DNA of 10,234 bases from a virus. The position numbers and the translations under genes were made by a program. Under the pieces are notes generated by a model that saw nothing but the letters and a program-made list of their open reading frames with translations, was not told where the DNA came from and ran no database searches. Every line of letters begins with the position of its first letter. The first letter of the stretch is position 1. Shown one piece after another: positions 446 to 10,234 of this stretch. The DNA lies in IMG/VR virus record IMGVR_UViG_3300035696_001163; one strand, written 5' to 3'.

Positions 446-632
446 ATGGACCTGTTACGAGGCTGCCGACGACGGCGGCACCACTTGCGAGCGCTTTGCC
501 CGGCTCTCGTGCGGTTGCTCTGTGCCCTTGGTCCAAGACCTAGAAATGGAGCCCGACCTGCCCTGCCCGCTGCACGAAGAGTCCCGCTTCATGGGGCATC
601 CGCCCGCCGTGGGCGAGACCCAACTCTACTGA
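429..632 (+). CDS. Small Cys-rich protein of 67 aa. It is paralog A of a tandem pair sharing a ..LSC.C..P...(14-15)..CPLHEESR.G motif.
   Basis: The ATG at 429 is the first start codon after an in-frame stop at 405-407. The protein motif is conserved with the adjacent ORF while the DNA diverges at synonymous third positions, including a TCC versus AGC serine codon switch. No Shine-Dalgarno sequence is visible. Confidence 0.55.
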   Translation: MRVESKWTCYEAADDGGTTCERFARLSCGCSVPLVQDLEMEPDLPCPLHEESRFMGHPPAVGETQLY

Positions 633-633
633 C

Positions 634-834
634 ATGAGAATCGTCCACATATTCTCGCACATCGAAGACGGCGTGCCCATGCTGTTCGCCCAGCTTTCCT
701 GCGCCTGCGTCTACCCCATCACTTCCGCGATGGTCTTCGACTGCGAAGAGACCGCATGCCCCCTCCACGAGGAGAGCCGTTACACTGGCGTGGCACCAGT
801 CCCCCCGGAGCCCGGCCCCTGCGAGGGCGTGTAA
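634..834 (+). CDS. Small Cys-rich protein of 66 aa. It is paralog B of the tandem pair (FAQLSCAC....CPLHEESRYTG).
   Basis: It starts 1 nt after the stop of paralog A. The motif is conserved with synonymous DNA divergence. No clear Shine-Dalgarno sequence; an alternative internal start lies at M16 (679). Confidence 0.5.
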   Translation: MRIVHIFSHIEDGVPMLFAQLSCACVYPITSAMVFDCEETACPLHEESRYTGVAPVPPEPGPCEGV

Positions 835-837
835 GGT

Positions 838-855
838 AGGCGTGATCTGACGCCT
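838..855 (+). terminator. Perfect 6-bp GC-rich hairpin at the convergence point of the plus-strand gene pair and the minus-strand tRNA array. The stem is AGGCGT/ACGCCT with loop GATCTG. It is a weak candidate terminator.
   Basis: The inverted repeat is visible directly in the sequence. The downstream tract CGTTCT is only moderately T-rich. Confidence 0.25.
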
Positions 856-872
856 CGTTCTAGTCAATGAGC

Positions 873-943
873 AGCCCCCGGTGGGATTCGAACCCACGAC
901 CTTCCCCGCGAAGGGGGACGCTCTACCGCTGAGCTACGGCCCC
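873..943 (-). tRNA. Degenerate tRNA-like gene, an Arg (UCG-like) relative and probably a pseudogene. It has no encoded CCA.
   Basis: Its reverse complement reads GGGGCCG TA GCTC AGCGGTA GAGC G TCCCC CTTCGC GGGGA AGGTC GTGGG TTCGAAT CCCAC CGGGGGC T. The D-arm and T-arm are good and identical to those of the tRNA-Arg(CCG) at 2767-2844. The anticodon loop has only 6 nt, and the acceptor stem carries three G.G mismatches (positions 2-4 against 69-71). Confidence 0.5.
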
Positions 944-1013
944 TAGCTGCGCATTTCAATCTTGCCCTCATTTTGAGCGCAATCGCACTCAAAAAGAGTA
1001 CAACAATCAACTT

Positions 1014-1089
1014 TGGCAGGGGCGGAGAGATTCGAACTCTCAACTTCGGTTTTGGAGACCGCTAGTTTACCAGTTTAGCCTACGCCCCT
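1014..1089 (-). tRNA. tRNA-Trp (anticodon CCA) with CCA encoded.
   Basis: Its reverse complement reads AGGGGCG TA ... CGGT CTCCAAA ACCG ... GAGAG TTCGAAT CTCTC CGCCCCT G CCA. This is close to E. coli tRNA-Trp in its acceptor stem, anticodon loop and T-arm. The D-arm pairing is looser than usual. Confidence 0.85.
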
Positions 1090-1686
1090 AATGTCCACAA
1101 TACCCGCATGAATCTCGTCATGGCAATTGCCGCAAACGAGGACACACTTGTCTAACTCCGCCCTTAACTTTTCCCAAGATCGCGTGCTCCCAGCCCCGCT
1201 AATCGCGAACTCCTTAGTCGCCGGGTCAACGTGGTGAAACTTGAGTGCTCGGATGCACCTGTTATAGCCGCAAATTTGACACTTCCCGCCTTTGTAGTCA
1301 ACCGCTTTTTGCTTCTGCTGTTGACGCCAGTACACGATACGTGTCACATCTTTTTTCGCAGCCGCTTGTTTTCGTCTTAAAGCGTCCGCAGCCTTGCACT
1401 TGATTGAACACCACTTGCGCCCTATCTTGACCGGAGTACCGCATTCATCACATTCGCCTTCCGGCCTTCGCTTTGGATACAGCCGATTGTTGTGCGCGGC
1501 TGCGCATCCGTGGCTACAAAATCGTCTCCGTCTGACAGTGCCGGGCTTTTCAGCCTCTTTCGGTAATATCGCTTTGCCGCAATGCCTACAGCGTGCTGGG
1601 TTCAACAAATACGCAGCGACCGCCGCTTCGTGTTCCTGTTTGCCCTTGATTAAGGCCGCCGCTTGTTTCTTGGGGTAGCGAATCAT
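1075..1686 (-). CDS. HNH homing endonuclease of 203 aa, with N-terminal CxxC zinc-finger-like modules.
   Basis: ATG at 1686. The C-terminus carries a classic HNH motif, CQICGY..LKFHHVDP..N..LVCGNCHDEIH. The last 15 nt including the TAA stop lie inside the 5' part of tRNA-Trp. The conserved 11-mer starts 5 nt upstream of the ATG. Confidence 0.8.
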   Translation of the reverse strand: MIRYPKKQAAALIKGKQEHEAAVAAYLLNPARCRHCGKAILPKEAEKPGTVRRRRFCSHGCAAAHNNRLYPKRRPEGECDECGTPVKIGRKWCSIKCKAADALRRKQAAAKKDVTRIVYWRQQQKQKAVDYKGGKCQICGYNRCIRALKFHHVDPATKEFAISGAGSTRSWEKLRAELDKCVLVCGNCHDEIHAGIVDIRGVG

Positions 1687-1691
1687 GTAGG

Positions 1692-1702
1692 TTTAATACT
1701 GC
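1692..1702 (-). promoter_or_regulatory. Conserved 11-mer GCAGTATTAAA (minus sense) 5 nt upstream of the HNH 1075..1686 ATG. An identical second copy lies at 2547..2557 upstream of HNH 2095..2541.
   Basis: There is an exact 11/11 match at equivalent positions: tRNA 3' end, then about 25-30 nt, then the motif, then 5 nt, then ATG. The two HNH proteins are otherwise unrelated at their N-termini. The AT-rich TATTAAA core looks like a phage -10 box. Confidence 0.45.
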
Positions 1703-1727
1703 AAAACCCAGAAACACTACCCCTTAA

Positions 1728-1817
1728 TGGCTGTGGGGGCAGGACTCGAACCTGCGACGGAGGTTACCCTCTCCCGATTAACAGTCAGGCCCCTGCTACC
1801 AACTCGGGTACCCCACA
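1728..1817 (-). tRNA. 90-nt type-II tRNA with a long variable arm. The scaffold is Tyr-like but the anticodon is GUU (Asn) and the discriminator is G73. CCA is encoded.
   Basis: Its reverse complement reads TGTGGGG TA CCC GAGTTGGTAGCA GGG G CCTGA CTGTTAA TCGGG AGAGGGTAACCTCCGTC GCAGG TTCGAGT CCTGC CCCCACA G CCA. Every stem pairs. The acceptor stem, the CCCGAG D-arm and the 3' CCCCCAC resemble bacterial tRNA-Tyr, but loop position 36 is U, which gives GUU. Confidence 0.75.
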
Positions 1818-1822
1818 AAAAT

Positions 1823-1897
1823 TGGCTGTGATCCTAGGATTCGAACCTAGACCTCCGATCTTAACAGGATCGCGCTCTGCCGTTAAGCTAGATCACA
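1823..1897 (-). tRNA. Canonical 75-nt tRNA-Asn (anticodon GUU) with CCA encoded.
   Basis: Its reverse complement reads TGTGATC TA GCTT AACGGCA GAGC G CGATC CTGTTAA GATCG GAGGT CTAGG TTCGAAT CCTAG GATCACA G CCA. It is a perfect cloverleaf. Confidence 0.9.
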
Positions 1898-2087
1898 ATT
1901 TCGTAAATCCCGCCTTGCAAAAGCCGCAATCGCAGCCCGGCACGTGCACGGTGGAACCCCGCTTCTCGGCCGCCCGCGCCCTCTCCGGGCAAACGCCGGG
2001 GTAGCCTTCCCACCTGTCGCAAGCCTTGCCAATTGGCTTGCCGCATTTCGGACACGGTATCGCAACGAGTTGATCTATCGTCATCAT
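1893..2087 (-). CDS. Possible small zinc-ribbon protein of 64 aa, MMTIDQLVAIPCPKCGKPIGKAC...CDCGFCKAGFTKL.
   Basis: ATG at 2087 lies 7 nt downstream of the stop of HNH gene 2095..2541. CxxC...CxC pairs are present. Its 3' end overlaps tRNA-Asn by 5 nt. The longer track ORF 1893..2324 overlaps the HNH gene and its upstream part is probably not coding. Confidence 0.35.
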   Translation of the reverse strand: MMTIDQLVAIPCPKCGKPIGKACDRWEGYPGVCPERARAAEKRGSTVHVPGCDCGFCKAGFTKL

Positions 2088-2094
2088 AATCTTT

Positions 2095-2541
2095 TCACTT
2101 GCGCTTTTTGAACCCCCAAGTGTCAGTCTGTGTATGGCAATTGGGGCAAACTTTCCACAAGTTCTCTCGACGATTATCCCGCCTATTTCCGTTCCTATGG
2201 TCGATTTGGAACCTAAGCGGTTTGCCATTCCAAATCGGGCCTTGTCCACAAGCTTCACAACGATTTTCAGTTCGGTCATAGTAACGGCGTTTCGCCACAG
2301 TTGTATGCGGCGAACCAAGCGCAAAAACCTGTTCTTCAGGCAACGAAAGCAGCAGTCCAGAGGCGGCGCAACCCAGAAAATGTTCCGTGTTCAATTCCAG
2401 TTTAGCGACCCACCGTTGAACCTGTCCGCTAGTTCGTACGTTGAGCTTACGACAAACTTCCGACCAAGAAAATGAAGTTCGTACAACTTCCGGTAACTCG
2501 GTCAAGTTCCACTTTCTCGGCTTGTGGAGGCCCTTACCCAT
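2095..2541 (-). CDS. HNH homing endonuclease of 148 aa.
   Basis: ATG at 2541. The HNH motif is CEACG..RFQIDHRNGNRRDNRRENLWKVCPNCH. The same 11-mer GCAGTATTAAA lies 5 nt upstream of the ATG. Within the cluster the gene sits directly downstream of a tRNA 3' end, as does HNH 1075..1686. Confidence 0.8.
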   Translation of the reverse strand: MGKGLHKPRKWNLTELPEVVRTSFSWSEVCRKLNVRTSGQVQRWVAKLELNTEHFLGCAASGLLLSLPEEQVFALGSPHTTVAKRRYYDRTENRCEACGQGPIWNGKPLRFQIDHRNGNRRDNRRENLWKVCPNCHTQTDTWGFKKRK

Positions 2542-2589
2542 GCCTATTTAATACTGCTTCCGCACACAAAACAGGCGTTTTACTATTTA

Positions 2590-2675
2590 TGGCTGGGAAG
2601 GAGAGACTTGAACTCTCAATGAGCCGAAGCTCGACGGGGTCAGAGCCCGTTGGGGTTACATTTTCCTACTTCCCA
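2590..2675 (-). tRNA. 86-nt tRNA-like gene of type-II architecture. Anticodon CUG (Gln), discriminator G73, CCA encoded, D-stem almost unpaired. Function is uncertain.
   Basis: Its reverse complement reads TGGGAAG TA GGAAAATGTAACCCC A ACGGG CTCTGAC CCCGT CGAGCTTCGGCTCATT GAGAG TTCAAGT CTCTC CTTCCCA G CCA. The acceptor stem, anticodon stem, T-arm and a 4-5 bp variable stem closed by a TTCG tetraloop are all good. The D-arm offers only 2-3 possible pairs. Confidence 0.5.
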
Positions 2676-2678
2676 AAC

Positions 2679-2756
2679 TGGCACCCACGGCAGGGTTCGA
2701 ACCTGCGACCTCCTGATTCGTAGTCAGGCGCTCTGGTTCCGCTGAGCTACGCGGGC
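2679..2756 (-). tRNA. 78-nt tRNA-Arg (anticodon ACG) with CCA encoded.
   Basis: Its reverse complement reads GCCCGCG TA GCTC AGCGGAACCA GAGC G CCTGA CTACGAA TCAGG AGGTC GCAGG TTCGAAC CCTGC CGTGGGT G CCA. The acceptor stem includes two G.U pairs. Confidence 0.85.
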
Positions 2757-2766
2757 GTAAAATTTA

Positions 2767-2844
2767 TGGCGACCCCGGTGGGATTCGAACCCACGACCTC
2801 TGGTTCCGGAGACCAGCGCTCTAATTCCGCTGAGCTACGGGGTC
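2767..2844 (-). tRNA. 78-nt tRNA-Arg (anticodon CCG) with CCA encoded.
   Basis: Its reverse complement reads GACCCCG TA GCTC AGCGGAATTA GAGC G CTGGT CTCCGGA ACCAG AGGTC GTGGG TTCGAAT CCCAC CGGGGTC G CCA. The anticodon loop matches that of E. coli Arg-CCG. Confidence 0.9.
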
Positions 2845-2857
2845 CCTACACAAAACT

Positions 2858-2934
2858 TGGGGTGAGGGAGGGGACTCGAACCCCCAACTACAGGAGCCAC
2901 AATCCTGCGTTCTACCAATTGAACTACCCTCACC
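2858..2934 (-). tRNA. tRNA-His (anticodon GUG) with a genome-encoded G-1 paired to C73. CCA is encoded.
   Basis: Its reverse complement reads G GTGAGGG TA GTTC AATTGGTA GAAC G CAGGA TTGTGGC TCCTG TAGTT GGGGG TTCGAGT CCCCT CCCTCAC C CCA. The extra 5' G opposite C73 is the hallmark of His. Confidence 0.9.
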
Positions 2935-2954
2935 ATACATCAAACTCTGTCTTC

Positions 2955-2990
2955 GGCAGCGGTAGTCCGCCATCCCCGGCTACCGCTGCC
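2955..2990. other. Perfect 11-bp stem hairpin (GGCAGCGGTAG / CTACCGCTGCC) with a 14-nt loop, about 20 nt upstream (in minus sense) of the tRNA-His 5' end.
   Basis: Inverted repeat read directly from the sequence. No U-tract follows it on the minus strand, so it is not a terminator for the array. It may be a processing or regulatory element. Confidence 0.5.
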
Positions 2991-3081
2991 TCTTGTGCGG
3001 AGCTAAAGATCGCTCGACCAGTTCCGGGTAACTGATCTCTCCGCAGGACGCGGGTGCCCCGCACTATTGTGCGAAAACTCC

Positions 3082-3119
3082 CTAAAAAGCCAAAACCCGC
3101 TAGGCGTTTCGCCAGCGGG
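3082..3119 (-). terminator. Rho-independent terminator closing the upstream minus-strand operon, just before the tRNA array.
   Basis: On the minus strand a GC-rich stem (CCCGCUGGCG / CGCCUAGCGGG with one bulge and an AAA loop) is followed by UUUUGGCUUUUUAG. Confidence 0.55.
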
Positions 3120-3318
3120 TCTGTTCAATCTTGTTTTGGGGTTTATTTCTTAACGACCGCCCCCTCCACCGGAGAACAGACCTTGGCCCGAATGGCGATT
3201 CCGCCACTGCTTTCGGGTCGTCGGATTGGATTTCCTGAATGTCATGTTCTTCCTTCTCTATCAATATACCACGAATTTCACTTTTTGGGTAGTTCGCGGG
3301 GAATTATTTTTAGCGGGC

Positions 3319-5999: not shown

Positions 6000-6157
6000 T
6001 GCTTGGCGCAGAGGTAGATTTTGTCCGTATCCCCGTTTTTACGCACCCATGGTATAAAGTCCACGGCGGGAAGTCCACACAAGGAGTCTTCGTCAGCTTC
6101 CGGGGCAAGCATACACCCCGCTGTAAAGTCCCTTAACGCCATACAGGTACCTCTCAT
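5972..6157 (-). CDS. Small Cys protein of 61 aa. It is paralog 1 of the tandem pair (..CGLPAVDFI...IYLCAKHWDEY).
   Basis: ATG 6157 forms an ATGA overlap with the stop of the nucleotidyltransferase gene. Paralogy is visible at protein level. Confidence 0.55.
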   Translation of the reverse strand: MRGTCMALRDFTAGCMLAPEADEDSLCGLPAVDFIPWVRKNGDTDKIYLCAKHWDEYWAFL

Positions 6158-7107
6158 GACTGCCAGTGCTCCGTATACGCAGCCGCGACTAGCTGGGATA
6201 TCGCAGACCTGTCTGGGCGTTCGGGCAGCTTAGAAGCCAACCGGGCGCTTTCTAGCAGGGCAAAGCGTTCCCTCGCTATACGCTCAATCTCAGCAAGCGG
6301 TTGGACCTTACCCAATCGAATATCAATCAGGAAGTCCTTTTCCGGACGTGGGAGCGTGATTCGGCCTTCCTGCATCAGCTCAATACCCTCGCCAAGCACC
6401 CTGATCAAATGCATCGCCGCTTTGGTGTCGTAACCATGTTCGTGAATCAGGTCCCAGCGCTGCCCTCGCTTGCCTACGCCTTCGCCTTTGAGTGTACGGA
6501 GCATGTGCTCCGAAAACTTCAGATAATGGTACCCGGCGTGACTACACAGGAATACGTGTCGGTGGGCGTGAACAAATCTTTGCCACGAATCGGGGTGAAG
6601 TGCCATGTTTGGGGCAAACAAATAGTGCATGGCATCGGGGTTGCCCGTGCACACCATCCCCGCCCACTTGCGCAGGGAGTACAGTGTCAGGTCAATGTCA
6701 TCAGGCCCGTTGCGTCGGTCATTTCCCGCCGTGCTCCATTTGAAAAGTTCCGGCTGTCTGGCACGCTCCTGACCGTTAGGCAGGGTGTCGTACTCGGTAA
6801 CGCCAAGTGCCGCGTGCGGAGGCGGGATGTAGATGCCGAACAGGTCGAGGTCTTCTTTCCCGTCCAGCGAGGCACCGTGAGCGCCGGAGCCGCCAATGAA
6901 CAAGTGAATGATTTCATCGGCCCACGTAAAGCCGGTCTGCTTGATGGCTGCGTAAATCGCGTTTACGTCGGTTGTTTTAACAATCTCCATAAATTCCACA
7001 ACGACAGAACCAGAAAGACACCTGTCATGAAGGTGTAGTCTATCCGGTGTAGCGTGTATATATTCACCCAAAGATAGATAGCGTTCCCCGCAACACTGAG
7101 TCCCCAC
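6154..7107 (-). CDS. Pol-beta-fold nucleotidyltransferase. The family is unresolved among MNT, AbiEii and CD-NTase-like groups. The likely start is ATG 6990, giving about 278 aa.
   Basis: The sequence IGGSGAHGASLDGKEDLDLFGIY matches hG[GS]-x9-13-Dh[DE]h, and a later DDIDLTLY strand supplies a third carboxylate. Roughly 180 aa follow the nucleotidyltransferase core. The track start GTG 7107 overlaps the membrane-protein gene by 145 nt. Confidence 0.65.
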   Translation of the reverse strand: MGTQCCGERYLSLGEYIHATPDRLHLHDRCLSGSVVVEFMEIVKTTDVNAIYAAIKQTGFTWADEIIHLFIGGSGAHGASLDGKEDLDLFGIYIPPPHAALGVTEYDTLPNGQERARQPELFKWSTAGNDRRNGPDDIDLTLYSLRKWAGMVCTGNPDAMHYLFAPNMALHPDSWQRFVHAHRHVFLCSHAGYHYLKFSEHMLRTLKGEGVGKRGQRWDLIHEHGYDTKAAMHLIRVLGEGIELMQEGRITLPRPEKDFLIDIRLGKVQPLAEIERIARERFALLESARLASKLPERPDRSAISQLVAAAYTEHWQS

Positions 7108-7644: not shown

Positions 7645-8132
7645 GGTGCTCCCTCAAGTTTCACATCTCTGGCATCGTAATACTGTTTGCGGGCAGCTTC
7701 AATGGTATTCCGCCATTGCGTTCTCTCGGCATCCGTGCGAACGAAAATTTCAATGAAGTCGCAAACAGTTCGAGGTATACCGGCGACACCGGCGGTCTCC
7801 ATCGGCACGTTGCGGCGGAAATGAATCGCCGCTGATGTGCCGAGCCTAACGTCATAGGTCGTGACTTTGACATTGAAGATGCTTGTGCAGTAAAGTTCGC
7901 CTTCTACCTCCGGCGCTGGAAGCGTGGAAACGCAAACATCGTGCTCGTTACCATAATTGCGCAGAAAAGCAGATTCAAGGTAGGCTGTCGCCGTCTCGCT
8001 CTGTGGATGTTCCCGTAAGTGTTTTATCCGTGTCAGGGCGGTAAAGATCATTACACAAGCAACCACCATAATTGCGATCCCTATCCATATCCCCGGATAA
8101 GCCAGTATGTCCCGTTTTAGATCATCCAGCAT
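7641..8132 (-). CDS. Membrane-anchored protein of 163 aa with one N-terminal transmembrane helix and a soluble C-terminal domain.
   Basis: ATG 8132 is preceded by GGAGG 6 nt upstream. The transmembrane helix is PGIWIGIAIMVVACVMIFTAL. The gene overlaps the 3' end of the HNH gene by 11 nt. Confidence 0.65.
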   Translation of the reverse strand: MLDDLKRDILAYPGIWIGIAIMVVACVMIFTALTRIKHLREHPQSETATAYLESAFLRNYGNEHDVCVSTLPAPEVEGELYCTSIFNVKVTTYDVRLGTSAAIHFRRNVPMETAGVAGIPRTVCDFIEIFVRTDAERTQWRNTIEAARKQYYDARDVKLEGAP

Positions 8133-8676
8133 ACGCCGCCTCCGCCTTTTCGATTTCCGGCTGCTTCCAAAACAGCAAGAACATCTGCGTGCTGTTCCCT
8201 TTCTCAGTGTTACAAGTCATGCACATTGTGCACAGGTTGGATAAATCGTTACCGCCGCCTTTGGACTTGGGAAGCACGTGATCCTTCGTCAGCATGACCT
8301 CTTTGCCGTTTTGAAGCCCGTACAGGTTGAAGTGCCATGTCCTCCCCGTGCCCCTGAATGATGTTTCAAACTTGCCGCCCTTTAACTGCTTCCGAACTTT
8401 CTTGGCTGAACGCTCCTTGGCAAAGTACATTCCGGTGATTCCACACCGGACGCATACTAGGGATTCGCGGAACACCTGATACCTATCGGATGTGATTTTG
8501 ATGAAGTCGCCGTCGAATTCAGCCCACGAATTACCGATCTGCGTGAATACCTCATCCAGAGTATAAATGCCGTTACGTTCATAGCCCGGGTGGAAGCCCC
8601 GGACAAGAACACCTTGAGGGACCTGATCGTCAGGGATCATACCCGTATTAGATGCCGTGGAAAAGAAAAAGGCCAC
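8122..8676 (-). CDS. HNH endonuclease of the DH..N..N type.
   Basis: The motif is CVRCG...HFNLYG...LTKDHVLPKSKGGGNDLSNLCTMCMTCNTEKG. The track start is GTG 8676. An alternative ATG lies at 8640. Confidence 0.75.
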   Translation of the reverse strand: MAFFFSTASNTGMIPDDQVPQGVLVRGFHPGYERNGIYTLDEVFTQIGNSWAEFDGDFIKITSDRYQVFRESLVCVRCGITGMYFAKERSAKKVRKQLKGGKFETSFRGTGRTWHFNLYGLQNGKEVMLTKDHVLPKSKGGGNDLSNLCTMCMTCNTEKGNSTQMFLLFWKQPEIEKAEAAYAG

Positions 8677-8721: not shown

Positions 8722-10234
8722 TTAGTTACCTACTTTTGCGGGCTTCGCTTGGATATTGCTCAGGATAGTCTCCAAGGCGGTTCCCTTGAACAACCTTTCC
8801 AGTGAGGTTCCAAGTCCAGTCTGTTCATGCAAAGCGAGCGGGGCAACGGCGGTAGCCAGCTTGGTAGCAAACTCCGTCTGTCCCAGCGTGAGCATGGCGG
8901 CTATGAGGTCAGGCGTAATCGCCTTGATCTTCGCCTCGAAGAACTCGACACGCTTCTCCTCGACTGTCAACGTGTAGTCTTCGCCAGCCTTACGACGGTT
9001 TAGCTCGGCTGTGGCAACTGCATCATGCAGCTTTTGCTGGTCGGCTTCGGCCGTCAAGCTGCTGACCGTTTCGGCGATCTCCGCTTGCAACTTCTCCATG
9101 GCTACGTCGGCCCGCTTGGCGTTCAGTTCGGCTTCCAGTTCAAGCTTCTTGATTGCCAAGTCGTTCTCCAGTACCGCTGCTTGCTCCTGAACTTCGACTG
9201 TACGCTTGGTAATGTCGAGGTTCTGCTCGGCGGCGGACAGGGAGATAACGCCTTCGACTGCCTTCTGCTGGGCATTCTTGAGCATCGTGGAGATACGTTC
9301 ATCGGCGATCTTGACATCCAATACTTCAACGTCATAGACCTCCATGCCGTTCTCCGGGAACGGATGAGCCCGACGCTTCCCATCCACCTTCGTGCCGAGG
9401 ATAGTGTCACGGACCTGAGCGGTTGAATCCTCGATGAATTCCTTGATCGACAACTTCTTGACCGCACCTTTGAGAAGTGACCGCATGTGGTCGCACAGGA
9501 ATTTAACGTAGTTCTCGACGGAAAACCACTTGTCCTGAGCTTCCCGAAGGAAGTTAACGCGGTAGGACAACTTTATCTCCACGTTCACAAGGTCTTTCGT
9601 TTCGACCCGGACGATGTCGGATACGACGTTGTTGTCTACGCGCAAGTACACGTCGTGAATCAACTTGTCGGTCGTCTTCGGCTTTCCGGTCGAAAGTTCA
9701 AGAACGGCGAGCGTTTCGTCGTACTTCAGCAGGATGGTTGCCGGTCCAACTACTACACGCCGCCCACCCTTTTTGTCAACGATTTGAACGGCGTAGCCGA
9801 CATAAGGACTGATAGTCGGCACCCCATCGTACTTCGTATTCAGGGTAAGCATCGGCGGTGGGGTGAACTGCGTGCCCCGGTTCAGCTTATCGCCTTCGAA
9901 TGACGCACTGGCGGCTAGTGCTCGACTTCCCGCTGTGCCTCGATTAACGGAGCGGAGAACATCCACGGAAGCTGCCTTAACGGTAGCGTCATAGACATAG
10001 TTGTCGGCATCATTTGCCAGTGCCCGAATGCTGTCATTGAATGCCAATGCTTCGGTGTTACCCGGATACCACAGGCTAACAGTCTTGGCATCCAGCACGC
10101 GGCGGATGATGACTTGAAAACGCGGATCGGGCAGGAAAATCTGTGGACCTTCCACGGTCTCCACATCGCCTATGTTCTTGTCGAGAACATAGCGGCCTTC
10201 GCCCGTGGGGATCGCAATTCCGTAGTAGCGCTGG
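8722..10234 (-). CDS. Large SPFH/band-7-like protein with a beta-rich N-terminal region and a long C-terminal coiled coil. The architecture is flotillin-like or vault-shoulder-like. The CDS is 5'-partial.
   Basis: The frame is open through the right edge; the track's M at 10164 is a GTG inside a longer open frame. An SPFH-like core (..VETKDLVNVEIKLSYRVNF..VYDVEVLDVKIADERISTMLKNAQ) is followed by about 150 aa of heptad-like E/A/K/L-rich sequence. TAA at 8724..8722. Confidence 0.7.
   Translation of the reverse strand, partial: QRYYGIAIPTGEGRYVLDKNIGDVETVEGPQIFLPDPRFQVIIRRVLDAKTVSLWYPGNTEALAFNDSIRALANDADNYVYDATVKAASVDVLRSVNRGTAGSRALAASASFEGDKLNRGTQFTPPPMLTLNTKYDGVPTISPYVGYAVQIVDKKGGRRVVVGPATILLKYDETLAVLELSTGKPKTTDKLIHDVYLRVDNNVVSDIVRVETKDLVNVEIKLSYRVNFLREAQDKWFSVENYVKFLCDHMRSLLKGAVKKLSIKEFIEDSTAQVRDTILGTKVDGKRRAHPFPENGMEVYDVEVLDVKIADERISTMLKNAQQKAVEGVISLSAAEQNLDITKRTVEVQEQAAVLENDLAIKKLELEAELNAKRADVAMEKLQAEIAETVSSLTAEADQQKLHDAVATAELNRRKAGEDYTLTVEEKRVEFFEAKIKAITPDLIAAMLTLGQTEFATKLATAVAPLALHEQTGLGTSLERLFKGTALETILSNIQAKPAKVGN

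Follow-up and report, generated by a model that had tools for sequence, protein, structure and literature searches.

The window analyzed here, which is the whole of a 10,234-nucleotide (nt) stretch of viral DNA (IMG/VR record IMGVR_UViG_3300035696_001163), carries two neighboring transfer RNA (tRNA) genes that share the asparagine anticodon GUU but differ in architecture: one is an ordinary type-I tRNA-Asn, and the other is a tRNA of type II whose variable arm is long. In textbooks and current reviews the long arm of class II tRNAs is limited to Leu, Ser, bacterial Tyr, and selenocysteine (Sec), where it is regarded as an identity feature for the synthetase. The question raised by the locus is whether the long-arm gene specifies asparagine or, as a first-pass annotation made from the letters of the window had proposed, is a Tyr/Asn chimera of ambiguous charging that might mistranslate. 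The sequence comparisons described here make it probable that the gene encodes a functional phage tRNA-Asn on a five-arm (type-II) scaffold that acts as a working Asn decoder.

Architecture of the tandem tRNA-Asn genes

Both genes are called as Asn(GTT) on the minus strand by ARAGORN, the type-II gene at 1728-1817 (90 nt including CCA) and the type-I gene at 1823-1897 (75 nt with CCA, having U1-A72 and G73), and they are separated by a spacer of only 5 nt on the same strand (1818-1822). The Rfam tRNA model RF00005 matches the type-II gene at 1731-1817 with a score of 50.3 bits (E = 1.3e-8; gathering score 29) and the type-I gene at 1826-1897 with 61.5 bits. The covariance-model alignment places CUGUUAA as the anticodon loop in both genes, indicating that the GUU anticodon of the type-II tRNA (1780-1782, minus strand) is not an artifact of folding by hand; the prospect that such a model would place a different anticodon thus falls away. 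The description of the 90-nt gene as a type-II tRNA with GUU, a CUGUUAA loop, and G73 is upheld by ARAGORN, by the covariance model, and by the sequence itself, and re-reading the anatomy from the sequence bore out every sequence statement of the first-pass annotation. Its report of an adjacent type-I tRNA-Asn also stands, but not the position "downstream": because both genes lie on the minus strand, the type-I gene is upstream (5') of the type-II gene.

The acceptor stem of the type-II gene is UGUGGGG/CCCCACA, in which U1 (1817) pairs with A72 (1732), and it is followed by the discriminator G73 (1731) and an encoded CCA (1728-1730), all on the minus strand. The D stem consists of 3 base pairs (bp; CCC/GGG) with G13.A22, and the D loop contains G18G19 and is extended after G19 (UAGC). 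The anticodon stem is CCUGA/UCGGG, and the T arm is GCAGG-UUCGAGU-CCUGC. The variable region, AGAGGGUAACCUCCGUC, occupies 17 nt (1756-1772, minus strand) and is laid out as 1 nt (A), a 4-bp stem (GAGG/CCUC) that covaries among relatives, a GNRA loop (GUAA), and 4 unpaired nt (CGUC) ending at C48. Positions 15 and 48 are G and C, not the A15-U48 pair of bacterial tRNA-Leu. The acceptor and T stems are arranged 7/5, no pair is broken in the window copy, and the molecule folds as a cloverleaf of 7/5 arrangement plus an extra hairpin. Canonical type-I tRNA-Asn(GUU) has in common with this gene the GUU anticodon, G73, U1-A72, the 7/5 arrangement, and CCA, whereas the type-II gene is distinguished by the length of its variable region, 17 nt (13-24 in the class as a whole) rather than 4-5, by its 3-bp D stem with G13.A22, and by supernumerary D-loop bases.

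Conservation, distribution, and ancestry of the long-arm family

Relatives of the type-II gene were sought in IMG/VR by its D arm (motif CCCGAGT(N)GGTAGCAGGG) with the anticodon left unconstrained. The 35 viral loci obtained contain 32 tRNAs recognized by ARAGORN, every one of which has GUU, U1 with A72, and G73. Since all 32 carry GUU these relatives are not tRNA-Tyr genes, and the reading of the window gene as an ordinary tRNA-Tyr with an error at position 36 falls; U36 and G73, whose conservation had been proposed as a check, are both fixed in relatives that were chosen without regard to the anticodon. The same uniformity contradicts an ambiguous or recent Tyr/Asn chimera, and a mistranslating one is unlikely. 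The D-arm family is a lineage of its own.

An alignment of 31 distinct family sequences (A1) contains standard pairs in 98.9% of cells, compared with 72% in shuffles and 32-55% when pairing partners are slid. Double-sided changes occur in 18 of the 23 pairs, including three extra-arm pairs that could be placed in register, and RNAalifold independently yields the same five-arm structure. All five helices, including the extra arm, are therefore kept by compensatory change across relatives. All 31 sequences have the U1-A72 pair, whereas acceptor pairs 2-7 are free to vary; at position 2-71, for example, 15 sequences have C-G, 15 have G-C, and one has G-U. G73 and GUU are likewise found in 31 of 31, little or no variation is seen in G18G19 and the T loop, G15 and C48 are conserved in at least 90%, and the family D loop holds extra bases after G19. 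The window gene belongs to a widespread, conserved phage tRNA family under purifying selection and is neither a one-off nor an error.

When the 90-nt gene is compared with cultured phages (blastn), the matches are genes annotated as tRNA-Asn in Pseudomonas phages, namely the phiKZ-like phages OMKO1, PA1C, phiHQ, BRkr, Churi, and others, together with Psa21 (Tepukevirus) and vB_PF_Y1-MI. According to ARAGORN these homologs are GUU tRNAs of 87-88 nt that share the D arm and arm layout of the window gene; identity to it is 73-76%, compared with 67-69% for the best canonical tRNA (a jumbo-phage tRNA-Tyr) and ∼60% for other tRNAs. In OMKO1, PA1C, phiHQ, Psa21, and vB_PF_Y1-MI the D arm, UACCCGAG(U)UGGUAGCAGGG, matches that of the window gene exactly or almost exactly, and GUU, U1-A72, G73, and the arm layout are shared, whereas the acceptor, anticodon, extra-arm, and T stems differ through compensatory changes. 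A single Asn tRNA is shown in the Pseudomonas phages, in contrast to the window, where a type-I copy stands beside the type-II gene; in OMKO1, the 40 kb around the gene contain six tRNAs (Leu, Pro, Met, Asp, Asn, and Thr), and the sole Asn tRNA is the 87-nt type-II gene. The window gene is a new member of a family already present in phiKZ-like phages under plain tRNA-Asn annotation, in records that do not remark on the architecture.

Another example is found in Cellulophaga phage phi4:1 (L124, 1487-1575), where an 89-nt tRNA(GUU) with U1-A72 and G73 is labeled tRNA-OTHER/tRNA-Pseudo in GenBank, probably as an annotation casualty of its unusual architecture. Such labeling of type-II tRNA-Asn genes as pseudo or undetermined is of practical consequence for annotation, as is the point that sequence alone provides no ground for reading them as mistranslating chimeras. 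The whole window has no close relative among cultured phages by megablast, the sole match being a 59-nt segment of a tRNA-Arg of Synechococcus phage S-CBWM1. A description of type-II tRNA-Asn was not found in full-text searches of the accessible literature or in reviews of tRNA identity and non-canonical tRNAs, an absence that is not proof, and the long-arm tRNA-Asn family seems never to have been described.

The prevalence of the architecture in viruses was assessed by scanning IMG/VR for CTGTTAA followed by a gap fitting a long arm and the T-loop consensus, which gave at least 120 matches; this and the following counts refer to the matches listed. A long tRNA(GUU) is confirmed by ARAGORN in most of these loci, 92 being clean cloverleaves, of which 63 have U1-A72 with G73 and 26 have G1-C72 with G73; the type-I Asn genes of these loci are divided between U1-A72 and G1-C72 in the same way. 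Type-I and type-II Asn genes occur together in 23 of 94 type-II loci, often adjacent and usually in the order seen in the window, while the other 71 show only the type-II copy within the available DNA. Co-resident copies share 3.5 of 7 acceptor-stem bases, compared with 2.5 of 7 in random pairs. In a separate sample of viral tRNA-Asn genes taken without regard to arm length, 10 of 107 are type II (9%; 95% interval 5-17%).

Long-arm tRNA(GUU) genes are also found in cellular genomes. A scan of species-representative genomes returned at least 120 matches, and 46 of the 120 listed are long tRNA(GUU) genes. Many of these belong to dense tRNA arrays, with as many as 39 tRNAs in 8 kb, that occur in Micromonospora, Verrucosispora, Mycobacterium, and various metagenome-assembled genomes (MAGs) and look like phage or mobile arrays. 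Loci L166, L173, L213, L156, L204, L257, and L258 (on Micromonospora and Verrucosispora chromosomes and in several MAGs) have 31-39 tRNA genes per 8 kb, each with a type-II tRNA-Asn. A different situation is seen in seven listed loci labeled Solirubrobacterales, Acidimicrobiia, or uncultured (L182, L196, L199, L201, L205, L246, and L262), which contain a solitary, near-identical type-II tRNA(GUU) whose D arm, UGGCGAAAUUGGCAGCCGCG, is Leu-like. To either side of it these loci share homology across several kb (65-87% identity by blastn; G+C content 67-73%), and the glycosyltransferase, lipase, and helix-turn-helix domains that Pfam identifies in the flanks of the Solirubrobacterales loci are uninformative. 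This copy looks like a vertically inherited chromosomal gene and may be a native cellular long-arm tRNA-Asn of Solirubrobacterales-type MAGs. The presence of a solitary, syntenic chromosomal type-II tRNA(GUU) speaks for the ability of a tRNA of this kind to take part in normal translation.

The ancestry of the tRNA body is less clear-cut. Long Asn tRNAs have an arm with 1 nt on the 5' side, a stem of 3-4 bp, and 3-4 unpaired nt on the 3' side; the corresponding values are 1 nt, 3-4 bp, and 3 nt for phage tRNA-Tyr, 1 nt, 4-7 bp, and 1 nt for phage tRNA-Ser, and 0 nt, 3-5 bp, and 1 nt for phage tRNA-Leu. The window arm (1 nt, 4 bp, a loop of 4, and 4 nt) fits the layout of phage tRNA-Tyr and not that of phage tRNA-Ser. 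Bacterial type-II tRNA-Tyr(GUA) resembles the window gene in its arm (1 nt 5', 3-4 bp, 3-4 nt 3'), its CCC/GGG D stem, and G34 and U35, but the window gene has U36 instead of A36, G73 instead of A73, U1-A72 instead of G1-C72, and a GNRA arm loop. The tRNA-Tyr hallmarks claimed for the gene at first pass thus survive in the geometry of the arm but not in the acceptor stem, whose GGGG/CCCC is peculiar to the window copy, positions 2-7 covarying in the family. The share of arms capped by a GNRA loop is 39% in long Asn tRNAs and 5% in phage tRNA-Tyr, and the type-II Asn class has heterogeneous D arms (type-I-like, Ser-like, and Leu-like), which suggests repeated origins rather than a single relic. 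The arm is Tyr-like, while a single Tyr origin has evidence both ways, the geometry for it and the GNRA loops and D arms against it; multiple origins across the class are probable.

Profile hidden Markov models (HMMs) with masked anticodons score the window type-II tRNA at 26.9 bits for Ser, 21.5 for type-I Asn, 15.8 for Tyr, and 11.4 for Leu, whereas genuine members reach a median of 37-49 bits with the model of their own class, by margins of 19-29 bits. Placement with tRNA-Tyr was rejected on this basis (15.8 bits compared with a median of 37 for real tRNA-Tyr members), and because scores are low and ambiguous on all four classes, any claim as to the canonical class of descent was dropped. 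A blastn search with E up to 10 found no match to the type-II tRNA in any complete E. coli genome.

Charging, decoding, and competing explanations

In bacteria, asparagine identity resides in the anticodon and G73 and is transplantable, and GatCAB selects Asp-tRNA-Asn through U1-A72 (PMC9976931; PMC2330236). The type-II gene has G34 U35 U36, G73, and U1-A72, and departs from bacterial tRNA-Asn in lacking the short variable loop of 4-5 nt and a D loop free of supernumerary bases. Bacterial TyrRS requires A73, U35, and G1-C72, and G73 is an antideterminant for both TyrRS and LeuRS (PMC9976931); the gene agrees with bacterial tRNA-Tyr in arm geometry and lacks the GUA anticodon, A73, and G1-C72. 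Bacterial tRNA-Ser conserves G1-C72 and G2-C71, and its long arm is read by SerRS (PMC9976931); G73 is present here, as it is in tRNA-Asn, while G1-C72, a conserved G2-C71, and a Ser-type arm are absent. Also absent are the A73 and the A15-U48 pair of bacterial tRNA-Leu (PMC9976931) and, the gene being 7/5, the 8/4 or 9/3 (12-13 bp) stems typical of allo-tRNAs and tRNA-Sec-like molecules. As judged from these elements, the D-arm family has the complete Asn identity set and lacks those of Tyr, Leu, and Ser.

On the reading preferred here, the type-II tRNA would be transcribed from the minus strand together with its neighbors, and processing would leave the encoded CCA as its end; for phiKZ, a Grad-seq study reports expression of the tRNAs taken as a group and their sedimentation with ribosomal fractions (PMC8545117). 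Charging would follow the Asn route of whichever host the virus infects, either by AsnRS through GUU and G73 or by non-discriminating AspRS (ND-AspRS) and then GatCAB through U1-A72. The second route is that of Pseudomonas, host of the phages that carry the cultured homologs; Pseudomonas aeruginosa forms Asn-tRNA by ND-AspRS and GatCAB (PMC2330236), and the strict U1-A72 of the type-II tRNA of Pseudomonas phages fits selection for transamidation in such a host. The tRNA would then decode AAC and AAU as asparagine, and the extra arm, although Tyr-like in geometry, would leave the inserted amino acid unchanged because it lies outside the Asn identity set. Provided that Asn is in fact the amino acid attached, an extra arm on a class-I isotype is accepted by AsnRS, ND-AspRS, GatCAB, EF-Tu, and the ribosome alike, and some reason other than identity must account for its retention. 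The long arm, textbook mark of a few isotypes, here accompanies asparagine identity elements; it is maintained by selection, frequent in phages, and, as it seems, native in at least one bacterial order.

As to why the arm is kept, it might, as a guess of low confidence, give the phage an Asn decoder shaped unlike both the host tRNA-Asn and its own type-I copy, so that host tRNA-directed nucleases or toxins could not abolish all Asn decoding together. The AriB nuclease of PARIS cleaves E. coli tRNA-Asn(GUU) along with the Lys(UUU) and Thr(UGU) tRNAs, and the versions of these tRNAs that phage T5 encodes are required for rescue, its tRNA-Asn helping to restore infection (PMC12409363); Septu reportedly cuts tRNA-Tyr in the variable loop (PMC13096335). 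These reports identify tRNA-Asn as a defense target and phage tRNAs as counter-measures, which makes phiKZ and its relatives an experimental system for the role of the arm. The T5 variants of tRNA-Lys, tRNA-Thr, and tRNA-Asn offer a parallel in that a phage tRNA-Asn(GUU) acts in counter-defense against a tRNA-Asn-cleaving nuclease, but they escape by base substitutions near the 40/41 cleavage site, and no long arm is reported for them (PMC12409363). A shape-diversifying role would accord with the tandem pairs, with origins that seem to have recurred, and with the presence of other long-arm tRNAs in the same loci. Escape from nucleases through changes in the anticodon stem was considered and rejected, since the 31-39 pair and the UAAUC motif are equally frequent in type-I and type-II copies.

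Several observations weigh against a working Asn decoder whose arm confers escape. The anticodon stem-loops of type-I and type-II phage tRNA-Asn do not differ (31-39 pair, U36AAUC motif), and the type-II copy in the window retains the host-like UAAUC used in AriB-type cleavage. The anticodon-masked profiles do not classify the type-II body as Asn either. In addition, the extension of the D loop after G19 (UAGC) is of the kind that acts as a GatCAB antideterminant, so that transamidation is not guaranteed.

It is unlikely, although it is the best surviving of the alternatives, that the type-II tRNA has a mainly non-translational role, as a decoy or sponge for a nuclease or toxin directed at tRNA-Asn, or as a substrate or guide for a phage enzyme, while the adjacent type-I copy decodes. 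This explanation accords with the recurrent type-I/type-II Asn tandems, with the possibility, raised in the PARIS study, that certain viral tRNAs have roles beyond translational rescue (PMC12409363), and with the presence nearby of HNH endonucleases and an RNA-repair-type nucleotidyltransferase of the RlaP family. However, the type-II copy stands alone in most of the listed loci (71 of 94, within the available DNA), and OMKO1 has no other annotated Asn tRNA in the 40 kb examined. Furthermore, the conservation of the full identity set, the T loop, G18G19, G15-C48, and CCA exceeds what a decoy needs, which is only part of these features.

A less probable, minor rival is suggested by the resemblance of the extra D-loop bases to GatCAB antideterminants: ND-AspRS would charge the tRNA with Asp and GatCAB would reject it because of the enlarged D loop or the arm, leading to Asp at Asn codons or to a build-up of Asp-tRNA. 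Supernumerary D-loop bases in tRNA-Asp and tRNA-Glu are antideterminants for bacterial GatCAB, and archaeal GatCAB gauges the length of the variable loop (PMC9976931; PMC2330236); the family D loop contains such extras, and P. aeruginosa, host of the homolog-bearing phiKZ-like phages, is among the bacteria that depend on this pathway (PMC2330236). Against it, the GatCAB determinant U1-A72 is invariant in the alignment while every other acceptor pair drifts, as selection for transamidation predicts. A mistranslating tRNA would also be difficult to reconcile with OMKO1, in which the type-II gene is the sole annotated Asn tRNA in the region examined, and with the syntenic chromosomal copy in a bacterial lineage.

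Charging of a chimeric tRNA by SerRS (or TyrRS) through the long arm, with Ser or Tyr inserted at Asn codons, is very improbable, even though SerRS disregards the anticodon and depends chiefly on the long arm and G73 (PMC9976931; PMC7609411), the window copy happens to carry G2-C71 and C11-G24, and the arm geometry is Tyr-like. The family has U1-A72 where bacterial tRNA-Ser conserves, and bacterial TyrRS requires, G1-C72; G2-C71 is unconserved, C-G being as frequent as G-C at that position; and the arm, with 3-4 bp and 3-4 unpaired 3' nt, departs from the 4-7 bp and 1 nt of phage tRNA-Ser. For TyrRS, as for LeuRS, G73 is an antideterminant, and A36 has been lost. Moreover, GUU is fixed in every family member, and charging that is independent of the anticodon gives no reason for keeping it. 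Least credible of all is a decaying duplicate or pseudogene whose arm is a neutral relic of a tRNA-Tyr ancestor, for which the tRNA-OTHER/pseudo label of the phi4:1 copy, a degenerate tRNA-like sequence elsewhere in the window (878-939), and the few changes needed to convert Tyr to Asn (A36U, A73G, and the 1-72 pair) could be cited, but which is largely refuted by the absence of broken pairs in the window copy and the compensatory changes in all helices including the arm, and is disfavored by the D-arm heterogeneity, which suggests repeated origins, and by the contrast in GNRA loops with tRNA-Tyr arms.

The Asn decoder proposed here can be distinguished from known tRNAs that combine a long arm with an unexpected anticodon. 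Nematode nev-tRNAs have long arms and anticodons of type-I amino acids, and their acceptor identity (Ser or Leu) is at odds with the anticodon, resulting in recoding. The allo-tRNAs of Mukai et al. similarly join a long arm to anticodons of type-I amino acids, as does the window gene, but their Ser or Leu acceptor identity conflicts with the anticodon and leads to recoding, and their stems are 8/4 or 9/3, whereas in the window gene the stems are 7/5 and the acceptor agrees with the anticodon (PMC5389517). A precedent for one isotype in both architectures, charged by a single synthetase, is provided by Streptomyces coelicolor, in which a type-I tRNA-Leu exists beside type-II tRNA-Leu; the arm was lost there in a cellular setting, whereas here it was gained in a phage setting (PMC6614811).

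Other long-arm tRNAs and the surrounding array

Asparagine is not the only isotype affected. Long-arm versions in the same viral loci, among the matches listed, include tRNA-Thr(UGU) (14 of 48), tRNA-Ile(UAU) (11 of 25), and tRNAs with CAU (13 of 66), and further cases in loci L001-L120 comprise Cys, Lys, Trp, His, Ile(GAU), Pro, and Glu; each long-arm non-Asn tRNA in these loci has the discriminator typical of its isotype. The share of long-arm genes among tRNAs other than Leu, Ser, Tyr, and Asn is 8.1% in loci that have a type-II Asn and 3.4% in loci that lack one (2.4-fold; p = 2e-4). The first-pass annotation's premise that only Leu, Ser, Tyr, and Sec normally have type-II tRNAs is contradicted by these phage data. 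A broader proposal, possible but considerably more speculative than Asn decoding by the window gene, is that phages repeatedly put a long arm on tRNAs that are type I in cells (Asn, Thr, Ile, CAU, Lys, Cys, Trp, His, and Gln) with identity elements intact, the arm serving as a general shape-altering device for escaping tRNA-targeting immunity or toxins or for marking tRNAs for phage enzymes. In a stronger variant, the arm or the enlarged D loop would alter the amino acid finally attached in GatCAB-dependent hosts. Such a device would be exemplified by the window, where ordinary tRNAs are accompanied by long-arm Asn and Gln tRNAs.

The long-arm tRNA-Gln(CUG), a second case of the same phenomenon in the array, is an 86-nt gene at 2590-2675 (minus strand; ARAGORN, Rfam 43.4 bits, and fold) with U1-A72 and G73. 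Its variable arm is CGAGCUUCGGCUCAUU, and its D arm, GGAAAAUGUAACCCC, lacks G18G19 and forms at most 2-3 pairs. In the related contig L275, genes for tRNA-Gln(UUG) of 75 nt and 91 nt lie 4 nt apart, mirroring the type-I/type-II tandem of tRNA-Asn.

The array as a whole consists of seven ARAGORN genes on the minus strand (1014-2933), all of which are matched by the Rfam tRNA model and all of which encode CCA. In addition to the Asn and Gln genes it includes tRNA-Trp (1014-1089), tRNA-Arg-ACG (2679-2756), tRNA-Arg-CCG (2767-2844), and tRNA-His(GUG) (2858-2933). The truncated tRNA-like sequence at 878-939 (minus strand) matches the Rfam model with 47.6 bits over model positions 5-66 only and is not called by ARAGORN. 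It resembles tRNA-Arg(UCG), with three G.G acceptor mismatches, C at position 37, and no CCA, and is probably a decayed tRNA gene. A promoter and terminator scan of 600-3300 gave counts near shuffle expectation and nothing usable.

Three HNH endonuclease genes (1075-1686, 2095-2541, and 8122-8676, minus strand) are interspersed with or lie beside the tRNA genes; amplification of tRNA and anti-defense loci by a phage homing endonuclease has been reported (PMC13096335). About 3 kb from the tRNA array, at 6154-7107 on the minus strand, is a gene for a nucleotidyltransferase of the RlaP family (RNA repair, Pol-beta-type; Pfam E = 4e-19, PHROG 388 E = 5e-43), possibly a tRNA repair or end-modifying enzyme. 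Finally, the minus-strand gene at 8722-10164 encodes a 480-residue protein with Major Vault Protein shoulder and vault-repeat domains, whose counterparts on viral contigs of 34-317 kb (L275-L279) show 59-61% identity to it. Three of these contigs, at 237-317 kb, are of jumbo-phage size, and most of the contigs carry large tRNA arrays.

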